Source: a virus
Length of the DNA stretch: 14,578 bases
Reading direction: 5' to 3' (one strand)
UHGV virus genome: UHGV-0349585
The position numbers and the translations under genes are program-made. Of this stretch, positions 1,168-4,965 are shown piece after piece (the first letter of the stretch is position 1; the number at the start of each line of letters is the position of its first letter). Below the pieces are notes generated by a model. It did no database searches. It had not been told where the DNA came from and saw only the letters and a list, made by a program, of their open reading frames with translations.

Positions 1168-2544
1168 TCATACGTCCGCCCCTTGTGCATATCGTCTGCC
1201 ACGTGCAGCGGGTGCATTTGATGCTGTGCAAATCTGTCTGGCTTCATCCTGGTCACATGCAACAAAGTGTCCGTTGCAGAACCGCTGGTAAACCGTACCA
1301 AGCGAGCCAAAACGGTTTTTCGTCACGATGATTTCAGCAAATGGCGCGGCGCTACTGTTCTCGTCATATACAGCTTCCCGATAGAGCATGATGATTGAGT
1401 CTGCGTCCTGTTCAATGCTTCCTGAATCACGCAAATCTGCGTTTGTCGGGCGTTTGTTTGGTCGCTTCTCAACATCGCGTGAAAGCTGACTCAGGGAGAT
1501 AACAGGCGTTTTCAGGTCTTTCGCCATCGCCTTCAGGCTTCCGGAGATGTGAGCAATTGCGAGGTCGTTGCGATCTGCTTTCGGCTTCTCAATCAGGCCA
1601 AGATAATCCGCCATGATGAGTGACAGGTTGGGATTTTCCTGTTTGTGCCGCTCTGCGATTGAGCGAATTTCTTCTACCGATAACCGCGAGGCATCGACTA
1701 CCCATACATCCAAATCTGCAAGCTGACTCATGCCGTTAGCAACACGCGCCCAGCCTTCGTCATCCATCGATGCAGGATTTCGCAGTACGCTAACCGACAT
1801 CCTCCCGGCGTTGGCAATGCTTCGCTCTGCAATCTGCAATGCGCTCATTTCCATTGAGAAAATCAATACCCCGCGCCGGACGTCAGAACCAGGGATAACG
1901 CGGCTTGCAACGCCTTCGGCAATCTTCAGCGCCAGCTCGGTTTTCCCCATACCAGGACGAGCAGCGATTATCACAAGGTCTTCCGCGTTCATCCCTCCGG
2001 TGATAGCGTCAAGTTCTTCGATTCCGGTCTTCAGGGTATCTGACTCTTCTCCGTTCCTCAGACGCCTGTCAAGCGTGTCAGTGTAGTCAGTGATGATTTC
2101 CCCTAACCGTACAGGTTTAACCTCGTCACGGGGCTTTCTGATGGCTGAAAGACGCTTTACAAGTTCATCCATCGCCTGACTCGATGCGTCGATGGTTCCG
2201 CTCTGAATTGGTTCACGCATTTCATCCATGATTTCCAGCACCAGACGGCGGTGATAGTTATCCGCGACCATTCCGGCATATCCCTTCAGGTTTGCGGCAC
2301 TCGGGCAGTTTTTGCTGGTCATCAGGATTGACGTGAAATGCTCCTCTCCGCACGCCTCGGCAACCATCAGCGCGTCGATTAGGTTTCTGTTTCTCGCCTG
2401 CTTGCGGATAACCTCGAAGGCTTTCCGGTAGAGCGGAATTGAAAACGCTTCCGGCTCCAGCGTTGCCAGAACGTCACTGGCAGTTGGTGTTAATCCACCA
2501 ATCAGCAAGCCACCGATAACGCTCGCTTCGATATCCTGTTTCAT
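1168..2544 (-). CDS. Replicative DNA helicase, DnaB family (phage-encoded, P22 gene 12-like rather than lambda P)
   Basis: 458 aa; Walker A ARPGMGKT; DnaB-like N-terminal and RecA-like C-terminal layout; start overlaps O-like stop (ATGA at 2541-2544). Confidence 0.85.
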
Positions 2545-3371
2545 GCAATCCCCCTGTCTGCAAACTTCCCTTCCCGTACTCCCGTTAACGAATCTTCCCT
2601 CAGCAGGTAATCAAAATCTGCCGTCCAGCCCGTGTCGTTGTCTCCGAAGTAAAACGGCTTGGCCTGATGCACAAACGCCCTGACATACGCTCTGAAACCG
2701 TCCACGTTTGGCGTTTTCAGTTGCGGGATGATTTTCTTCAGGCGGCGTTTGCGTTTCTCGTTGACCGCAACAGCATGTGGAAGTCTGTCACCGACTTCGG
2801 TGTTGTAGGCGTTCAGGAAGGATTCGTAGTCGATTCGTTCTGCCTTGCGACGTTCAGGTTTAACCTGCCCATCGCCGCCCCCGTTAGGGGGTAAGGGGGT
2901 ATTTGTATTTATTGTCTTTTGTATATTGTCTTTTGTGTTTGACTGATTCGGTAAATTGCTTTTTACCGATTTGGTGAAGGTTTGTTTTACCGAATTGGTA
3001 AATGTTTTACCGAATCCGTTAACTTTCGTTTTCCACTCGGAAATGTTTGTATTCATACCAACTTGACGCCCCACCTGAATGAGAACTCCCATTCTGATAA
3101 GCTCGTTTTTGGCGGTAGAGCATTTGGTTGGTGCCATGCCAGTGAGTTCAGCGAACTGTTCGTTTCCGATCCAATCTATTTTTTTGTTGTAACCGTATGT
3201 CTTGCGCCACACAGCCATAACAATCAGTAACTGATGTAGAGTAAGTCCAGAAAGCATGGCGGCTTCTAACAGTGTGTTTGCAGTCCGAGTGTAGCCATCT
3301 TCGAGTTCTGCCACGCGATGCTCCACGACCTCCAGTTGAGGCCTGTAATCAGCTAACTTAACGACGCCCAT
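2541..3371 (-). CDS. Replication initiation protein, lambda O N-terminal-domain family, with iteron-encoded repeat segment
   Basis: 276 aa; [22 protein letters not shown] motif typical of phage O-like initiators; internal repeats [16 protein letters not shown] coincide with DNA iterons; AGGAG RBS before ATG at 3371. Confidence 0.8.
2898..3025. repeat. Origin of replication: iterons plus adjacent AT-rich tract inside the O-like gene
   Basis: TTTTACCGAAT core as three direct copies (about 2961, 2986, 3005) plus one inverted copy (2946-2955); AT-rich tract 2898-2940 with TGTCTTTTGT repeated. Confidence 0.65.
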
Positions 3372-3519
3372 GTTTCACTCCTGCTTTGGCTAGTCTGTAA
3401 ACACCAACAAGGCGCTCTGCGAACGCCCTGTTATTTGCTGCGGCTACCACTAATCCCTCAGGTGAATCAGGGTGTCGAATCTCTTCTTTTTCCTGGTATT
3501 TCTTACGACGTTTTGTCAT
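3358..3519 (-). CDS. Small basic hypothetical protein (53 aa) between cII and the O-like gene
   Basis: My own translation [53 protein letters not shown]; AGGAG RBS 6 nt upstream of ATG at 3519; not in the ORF track (<60 aa). Confidence 0.3.
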   Translation of the reverse strand: MTKRRKKYQEKEEIRHPDSPEGLVVAAANNRAFAERLVGVYRLAKAGVKHGRR

Positions 3520-3553
3520 AATTACTCCTGTGGATTGATCCAGTCTTTCTACA

Positions 3554-3832
3554 TCAGGCCTCGAAGAATTCGCCGTTCTTCGGGGCTTTTTCTTTTGTCA
3601 GCATTCTGGCTACTTTCTTAGCCAGTTCCGCCAACTCCTCGTCTTCAACACCCCATTCAAGAACAGCCAGAAGCATTCCCATTTTTGGGATGAAGCTGTC
3701 TTTCCATCGCGAAATTTGCGATTCATTAATCCCTAACGCGTCGGCAACCTTTCGCTGACCACGTACAGCAATTCGATTCAGGATGTTGCTTGTAATTGCA
3801 TTCGCTTTCTTGCGAGTACTTGTAAGTTGCAT
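3554..3832 (-). CDS. cII: CII-like transcriptional activator (92 aa), diverged from lambda CII
   Basis: Conserved core ALGINESQISRWK...FIPKMGMLLAVLEWGV resembles lambda CII; ATG at 3832 preceded by the lambda-like leader CTAAGGAAATACTTACAT; ORF-track frame extends further upstream but this start has the RBS. Confidence 0.75.
   Translation of the reverse strand: MQLTSTRKKANAITSNILNRIAVRGQRKVADALGINESQISRWKDSFIPKMGMLLAVLEWGVEDEELAELAKKVARMLTKEKAPKNGEFFEA
3557..3596 (+). terminator. Strong intrinsic terminator on the strand antisense to cII, overlapping the cII 3' end (oop-RNA-like arrangement)
   Basis: About 11-bp stem GGCCTCGAAGAA/TTCTTCGGGGC with 7-nt loop, followed directly by TTTTTCTTTT on the plus strand. 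Confidence 0.55.
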
Positions 3833-3911: not shown

Positions 3912-3943
3912 GCCCTTTTTCAGGGCTGGAATGTGTAAGAGCG
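3912..3943 (-). promoter_or_regulatory. nutR (boxA and boxB)
   Basis: On minus strand: boxA CGCTCTTA (3943-3936) then boxB hairpin GCCCTGAAAAAGGGC (3926-3912), just after cro. Confidence 0.8.
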
Positions 3944-3950
3944 GGGTTAT

Positions 3951-4160
<210 letters not shown>

Positions 4161-4177
4161 TTAGTACATGCAACTAT

Positions 4178-4247
4178 TATCACCGCTAGAGGTAAAATAG
4201 TCAACACGCACGGTGTTAGATATTTATCCCTCGCGGTGATAGATTTA
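4178..4247. promoter_or_regulatory. OR1-OR2-OR3 operators with divergent pR (toward cro) and pRM (toward cI)
   Basis: 17-bp operators at 4178-4194 (OR1), 4202-4218 (OR2), 4225-4241 (OR3); pR -35 and -10 as AGTCAA and ATTATC on the plus strand; pRM -35 TAGATA (4217-4222) and -10 GATTTA (4242-4247); cI ATG at 4252 is leaderless. Confidence 0.85.
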
Positions 4248-4248
4248 A

Positions 4249-4965
<717 letters not shown>

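Follow-up and report, generated by a model that had tools for sequence, protein, structure and literature searches.

A probable pO-oop-tO cassette and a conserved HK97 gp53-type gene between cII and O in a mosaic lambda-like phage

Does a mosaic lambda-like phage whose cII allele differs considerably from that of lambda still encode an oop-like RNA antisense to the 3' end of cII, and is the small open reading frame (ORF) lying between cII and O a gene? Both questions are raised by a 14,578-nt stretch of the UHGV virus genome UHGV-0349585 (the window), in which the early-right operon lies on the - strand and whose nearest overall relatives are HK544, Sf6 and HK97. The cI gene of the window (4252-4965, + strand) encodes a protein identical to lambda cI in 234 of 237 aa. 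It is followed, all on the - strand, by a cro ORF (3951-4151), a gene for a CII-family transcriptional activator of 92 aa (3554-3832), a 53-aa ORF of the HK97 gp53 family (3358-3519; ORF53), an O-like replication initiator gene (2541-3371; Pfam Phage_rep_O, E = 4.2e-36) and a DnaB-like helicase gene (1168-2544). The O-like gene contains ori-like iterons (2961-3032), and a rep_origin is annotated at the equivalent position in Sf6 and ES18. The CII-family protein matched Pfam Phage_CII with residues 1-91 (E = 1.8e-42), shares 53% identical aa with lambda CII and corresponds to the gene annotated as CII in the records of HK544, Sf6 and mEp213; mechanical ORF calling extends this 92-aa gene upstream to 3892 and so lists a 112-aa ORF. 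Between cII and O the window has a gap of 182 bp (3372-3553), whereas the corresponding gap in lambda comprises only 32 bp and holds no ORF53-like ORF.

A terminator scan revealed a tO-like intrinsic terminator on the + strand (3556-3596). Its 14-bp stem, formed by 3556-3569 and 3575-3588, encloses a 5-nt loop and leads into a U-rich tail, with TTTCTTTTGT directly 3' of the + strand stem-loop at 3556-3588. The terminator overlaps the final 13 codons of cII together with the stop codon (3554-3596). Folding of the RNA from 3525 to 3600 yielded -27.9 kcal/mol (z = -4.78), a stability that not one of 200 shuffled sequences reached. For the - strand the scan reported no terminator-like signal at this site, so that the signal is one-directional and points against the pR operon. 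The original prediction had placed a strong + strand terminator, antisense, within the last cII codons and had likened it to lambda oop; the stem and its z-score bear out the terminator, and the comparison with lambda and P22 described below bears out the likeness.

Direct alignment of the lambda leftward strand (tttgtCATAATgactcctGTTGATAGATCCAGT) with the + strand of the window (tttgtCATAATtactcctGTGGATTGATCCAGT) showed that the -10 element of pO and the 5' end of oop have homologous counterparts in the window. The pO-homologous promoter predicted in this way (3494-3522, + strand) comprises TGGTAT at the -35 position (3494-3499; 2/6 to consensus), a 17-nt spacer, an extended -10 TG at 3514-3515 and the -10 element CATAAT at 3517-3522. 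The CAT of this -10 element is complementary to the ORF53 start codon, just as the CAT of the lambda -10 element (CATAAT at 38688-38683) is complementary to the O start codon. Mutations of the lambda -10 at 38683-38687 abolish pO function (PMC5869508). Aligning the window with position 38675 of lambda, where oop has its 5' end, places the first nucleotide of the predicted RNA at G3530 and gives an oop-like antisense RNA of about 67 nt (3530-3596, + strand). It is predicted to fold into a small 5' stem-loop (3530-3552) followed by the terminator hairpin. Over its whole length it is perfectly complementary to the pR transcript, covering 43 nt of cII and 24 nt of spacer, and the complementarity stops one base before the Shine-Dalgarno sequence of ORF53. 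Rfam 15 revealed no family for the window at either gathering or permissive thresholds; since Rfam holds no OOP model and lambda's own oop was likewise unmatched, this result is uninformative.

Closely related sequences are already annotated, and in two cases the RNA itself has been reported. At the corresponding sites, the P22 record (BK000583) lists a 'promoter: oop; similar to phage lambda' as well as a 'terminator: oop', and it places orf48 between these elements and gene 18; the record of phage L annotates the terminator. Small-RNA sequencing during P22 infection recovered a 63-nt 'P22C-oop' (PMC13397905), whose first 30 nt (GAUUGAUCCAGUCUUUCUACAUCAGGCCUC) are identical to window 3533-3562. 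A transcriptomic study (RNA-seq) of prophage BTP1 likewise reported OOP(BTP1), which lies antisense to the 3' end of cII (PMC7067206). BTP1 differs from window 3530-3601 in a single base (G3532 in the window, T in BTP1), positions 3533-3601 being identical, and a near-identical RNA has thus already been reported as a transcript. Both P22 and BTP1, for which the RNA was seen, carry the orf48-type -35 TGGTCA and not the gp53-type. Among 5426 complete E. coli genomes, 958 contain part of a 301-bp stretch around the feature and 271 contain at least 80% of this stretch; in these genomes PGAP annotates ORF53 as 'hypothetical protein' and leaves the oop RNA unmarked.

The -10 element, the 5' end of the RNA and the RBS and start codon of the next rightward gene all fall into a conserved lambdoid core of 33-35 bp, a boundary sequence at 3510-3544. 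In an alignment of lambda, P22, L, HK022, ES18 and the window the columns of this core are invariant, and BLAST searches detected it (query positions 31-65) with 97-100% identity in Stx phages, HK022, 933W and others. The Sf6 record labels the 33 bp equivalent to window 3512-3544 as 'bsq5; boundary sequence'. Hayes et al. (2012) described a 33-bp region common to 23 lambdoid phages and the order cII-oop-"orf"-O-P, in which "orf" includes the HK97 gp53-type; the ORF beginning at the conserved ATG belongs to the homologues of either P22 orf48 or HK97 gp53 (PMC3349717). The exact core pattern was present in at least 120 viral contigs. Together with reference phages, these viral-contig loci gave a comparison set of 127 instances with 36 distinct downstream sequences. 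Across the 127 loci, cII/terminator types reassort freely with the types of the right-hand gene, of which three kinds lie beside the core: lambda-type O directly, orf48 and the gp53-type. This reassortment confirms the core as the recombination joint between cII alleles and rightward genes.

The 36 downstream sequences fall into six terminator types. We folded ten sequences, namely one or two representatives of each type, ES18 and two relatives from Erwinia and Cronobacter phages. Every variant was folded singly, as the stems of eight short-class variants did not line up in a MAFFT alignment and RNAalifold gave no meaningful consensus for it. All ten formed a 5' stem-loop, a terminator hairpin and then a U-run. 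Their stems differ by paired changes, for example GGCCUCGAAGAAU/GUUCUUCGGGGCU in the window versus GGCCUCAAAACUG/CAGUCUUGAGGCU in P22, and the overlapping C-terminal peptides of CII vary freely (KNGEFFEA, QDCGNSFEA, SCANSFEA, SAGTLEA). Judged from these sequences, it is the predicted RNA structure that is conserved and not the protein sequence of the CII tail. The freely varying tails fit the finding that the last 17 residues of lambda CII are dispensable for its activity and are required for regulation by OOP (PMC3349717).

The one real weakness of the case for oop is the poor -35. A consensus promoter scan did not call TGGTAT-17-CATAAT in the window, which scored 7/12 overall and fell below the scan threshold. 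The same scan found pO of lambda (TTGAGT-17-CATAAT) and of P22 (TGGTCA-17-CATAAT), both of which also have the TG, and the miss in the window is therefore due to its -35 only. The poor -35 also accounts for the statement in the original prediction that no convincing promoter could be identified. That statement agrees with the consensus scan, but homology does place a pO inside the interval that had been proposed for promoter prediction (3480-3530). Full activity of lambda pO has been suggested to need sequences up to 94 nt upstream (PMC5869508), and the sequences upstream of the window pO differ from those of lambda. Three unrelated classes of right-hand gene other than lambda O nevertheless keep CCTGG(T/A)A at equal distance from the -10, where it forms codons 8-9 (Tyr/Phe-Gln) of these genes. 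In gp53 homologs of Salmonella, Cronobacter, Enterobacter and Erwinia phages, codons 8-11 (TAC CAG GAA AAA) are nucleotide-invariant, whereas the codons of most other conserved residues vary at synonymous sites (dS 0.8-2.3). This pattern is suggestive, not conclusive, of constraint at the DNA level on the -35 region despite its poor match to the consensus. Speculatively, pO of the gp53-type, with its poor -35, might require an activator or SOS induction and not be constitutive.

Extended -10 promoters can work without a good -35, and none of the variants lacks the extended -10 TG. This bears on a different reading of the locus, according to which phages of the gp53 class carry only a relic of the cassette: the core would be kept as RBS, start codon and recombination joint, the hairpin would persist for other reasons, and the promoter would fire too weakly for its RNA to matter. 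The uncalled 2/6 -35 of the window, beside the called promoters of lambda and P22, would agree with such a relic, as would the fact that direct RNA evidence comes from orf48-type promoters only. Decay is, however, hard to reconcile with the invariance of codons 8-11 among gp53 homologs whose other synonymous sites are saturated, or with CCTGG(T/A)A at a fixed distance from the -10 in three unrelated right-hand genes. At core-bearing loci, moreover, gp53-type genes adjoin terminators of six sequence variants, all of them intact, and even the distant Erwinia and Cronobacter phage relatives, which lack the exact core pattern, still keep the hairpin and the U-run. Intact terminators of such varied sequence argue for continued selection for ending a leftward transcript, and we consider a relic improbable. 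In another reading, the + strand terminator mainly insulates the immunity region from other leftward transcription arising in the replication genes or the origin, with no dedicated RNA involved, and the hairpin would indeed stop any + strand transcript arriving from the O side. A homologous promoter nevertheless lies 34 nt upstream of the hairpin, in the spacing class of P22, BTP1 and L, and discrete RNAs of 63-77 nt are documented for P22 and lambda (PMC13397905; PMC3349717), which makes a pure insulator very unlikely.

We therefore favour, with good confidence, the reading that the + strand of 3494-3596 represents the lambdoid pO-oop-tO cassette in this phage and serves to lower CII. A weak extended -10 promoter (TGTCATAAT), in which the start codon and the RBS spacer of the next rightward gene double as the -10, would start a transcript at about G3530 and direct it leftward against the pR operon. 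The transcript would end at the hairpin and U-run in the last cII codons and yield a two-stem-loop RNA of about 67 nt. If it acts as OOP does in lambda, the RNA would pair with the cII 3' end of the pR transcript and with the 24-nt spacer up to the ORF53 Shine-Dalgarno sequence; cleavage of the duplex by RNase III would then leave less CII and shift the phage toward lytic growth. Activity of the promoter variant of the window is inferred from its sequence, and both a dependence on RNase III and a lowering of CII would follow from what is reported for lambda, where OOP down-regulates cII in an RNase III-dependent manner (Krinke and Wulff, as cited in PMC7067206 and PMC2327240). Even in lambda the role of OOP is modest in some settings, and OOP is not the cause of CII loss after SOS induction (PMC2327240). 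A LexA-box-like motif, CTGT-N8-CCAG (CTGTGGATTGATCCAG; 3528-3543), appears to span the RNA start in the window and may confer a response to DNA damage. Lambda carries the equivalent motif (CTGTTGATAGATCCAG), and a LexA binding sequence within oop-pO has been described (Lewis et al. 1994, as cited in PMC5869508).

Concerning the second question, the 182-bp gap does hold a Lys/Arg-rich ORF of 53 aa with a strong RBS that is absent from lambda, as had been predicted: 14 of its residues are Lys or Arg, and AGGAG (3525-3529) lies five bases before its ATG. This RBS is the one that lambda uses for O. The ORF had also been taken to be unannotated, which proved incorrect, since it is listed as a hypothetical protein in HK97 (gp53), Sf6 (gp42), ES18 (gp58), mEp213, HK544 and RefSeq E. 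coli. A tblastn search showed 100% identity to HK97 gp53, and all of residues 1-53 matched PHROGs family phrog_1331 (E = 1.4e-37). We found 68 homologs across Enterobacteriaceae, which share the motif GLVVAA..NRAFAERL and whose indels comprise whole codons; the motif is conserved in phages of Escherichia, Salmonella, Cronobacter, Enterobacter, Citrobacter and Erwinia. Comparison with the homologs from Cronobacter, Enterobacter and Erwinia phages gave dN/dS values of 0.06-0.10, with dS saturated. By these sequence comparisons, ORF53 is a real gene under purifying selection.

ORF53 is distinct from the small gene that occupies its place in other phages. Homology to orf48 of P22/HK022 was considered and rejected, as BLASTP produced no alignment at E <= 100; at the DNA level the two genes can be aligned in their first ~11 codons only. 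The 'orf48' of Silas et al. was likewise set aside, since that numbering is private to Silas et al. and refers to an unrelated ORF. The stop codon region of the ORF53-type gene overlaps the O start by 14 nt at all 39 loci with a called O, and orf48 overlaps the O start by 8 nt (24 loci). The ORF53-type gene occurs with every cII/terminator type and is paired with five or more O alleles, of which two are also found beside orf48. Being combined with such varied O and cII/terminator alleles, it behaves as an independently assorting accessory gene.

The overlap between the ORF53 stop and the O start suggests translational coupling, and it could be asked whether ORF53 is a mere translated leader for the O start, or a chance ORF, whose product has no function as a protein. 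The very short ORF had no match in Pfam, NCBIfam, PADLOC or the PDB sequence profile. Its AlphaFold2 model reached only a moderate pLDDT of 68, with a disordered stretch at residues 1-20 (a basic/acidic N-terminus) and a helix at residues 21-49, and Foldseek searches with this model against PDB and BFVD revealed no significant match. All of this, like the overlap itself, would suit a leader or a chance ORF. Neither of the two explains the low dN/dS, the saturated synonymous change, the whole-codon indels and the conserved motif, which show that the peptide is conserved and thus more than a leader, and lambda translates O without any ORF53. We consider the absence of a functional protein highly improbable.

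A literature search on HK97 gp53 returned only unrelated gp53 proteins. We propose with low confidence that ORF53 modulates replication initiation or the cII/oop decision node. The more specific idea that the gp53 family is an undescribed small regulator at the oop node, for example one that tunes O translation or origin firing or binds the cII-oop duplex, is speculative and on balance unlikely. It draws on the strong conservation of the protein, its basic N-terminus and helical C-terminus, an RBS adjoining the oop 5' end, and the overlap of its stop with the O start. If it were true, phages with the gp53-type gene, with orf48 or with neither would differ in how they couple replication to the choice between lysis and lysogeny.

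The cassette as such is already known: it is a textbook regulator of lambda lysis-lysogeny and has been annotated or published in P22-, HK97- and Sf6-like phages. The present analysis supplies exact coordinates for the predicted promoter, start site and RNA in the window. It also shows that neither Rfam nor automatic annotation picks up oop, which consequently stays unmarked in about a thousand E. coli genomes.

Compared with the OOP/pO/tO system of lambda, the arrangement of the window is the same in its main features. In both phages the cassette is antisense to the cII 3' end and begins immediately to the left of the RBS that belongs to the next rightward gene; in both, the promoter combines CATAAT with an extended TG and has its -10 made by the start codon of that gene. 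The first ~15 nt of the two RNAs are near-identical, and each RNA has two stem-loops with the terminator inside the cII codons. The lambda RNA is 77 nt long, whereas about 67 nt are predicted for the window, whose 5' stem-loop is smaller and whose overlap with cII amounts to 43 nt instead of 52-55 nt. The terminator sequences of the two phages are unrelated, since their cII alleles are only 53% identical. The -35 of the window (TGGTAT) lies in ORF53 and is weaker than that of lambda (TTGAGT), which lies in O. Unlike lambda, the window has a gene of 162 bp between the oop cassette and O.

The P22 oop and the BTP1 OOP belong to the same short RNA class as the predicted RNA of the window and agree with it in the 5' 30 nt. 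The terminator of the window recurs in BTP1 and phage L, and P22 has a compensated variant of it. The gene order of P22 and BTP1 also resembles that of the window, with c1/cII, oop, a small ORF and O-like and DnaB-like genes; their small ORF, and hence the -35 region, is that of the 48-aa orf48 and not of ORF53. The closest counterparts are HK97 gp53, Sf6 gp42 and ES18 gp58, which are 94-100% identical to ORF53, occupy the same slot with the same 14-nt overlap with O and show no difference of substance from the gene of the window.

Grouping viral loci with the conserved lambdoid core by the gene to its right showed that CCTGG(T/A)A at the position of the -35 element of pO, the promoter of the oop cassette (window 3487-3499), is common to three unrelated right-hand genes. 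These are the gp53 type (named after HK97 gp53), the orf48 type (after P22 orf48) and a type beginning 'MTYENDKFQ...'. The same motif doubles as a Dcm site (CCWGG). In the gp53 homologs, the four codons at this position are invariant at the nucleotide level, with synonymous sites elsewhere being saturated.

Several of these small genes lack annotation. The BTP1 record (30532-30704) displays a 173-bp c2-O gap without a CDS, yet an orf48-type ORF lies inside it, and the gp53-type ORF is not annotated in IME10, ECP1 and Cronobacter phage ENT47670. A search of Rfam 15 with lambda's own oop RNA revealed no model that recognises it; any Rfam-based annotation would therefore miss oop-like RNAs. In Enterobacter phage ENT1 (L131, about 480-620), the gp53 homolog is located 3' of a gene without obvious resemblance to cII, and the spacer before the homolog contains an antisense hairpin with a T-run (GGGCCTTTGAAG..CTTCAAGGGCTT TCGCTTTTTT). 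Because hairpin and T-run occur here with a non-cII-like upstream gene, an oop-like terminator may have been kept in another context in this phage.

The window belongs to a mosaic phage with lambda immunity (imm-lambda), of the HK544/HK97/Sf6 type. Its immunity region (3951-4965) is that of lambda; the cI product is identical to lambda cI at 234 of 237 positions (changes T3A, K71N and G125V), and the cro ORF encodes what we take to be lambda Cro. Between cro and cII, the minus strand carries GCCCTGAAAAAGGGC (about 3913-3927), presumably the lambda nutR boxB hairpin, which fits the lambda-type immunity region. The adjoining cII shows just 53% identity to lambda CII. For replication, the phage has genes for an O-like protein and a DnaB-like helicase.

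Within the first codons of cII, a TTGC-N6-TTGT motif is found on the plus strand (3810-3823), at a position annotated in Sf6 and mEp213 as the site bound by CII/C1 and as the P_RE promoter. The O-like gene contains three direct repeats, TTTTACCGA(A/T)T.., at 2961-3032 with a spacing of 20-24 bp. These are probably origin iterons; Sf6 and ES18 have a rep_origin annotated at the equivalent place.
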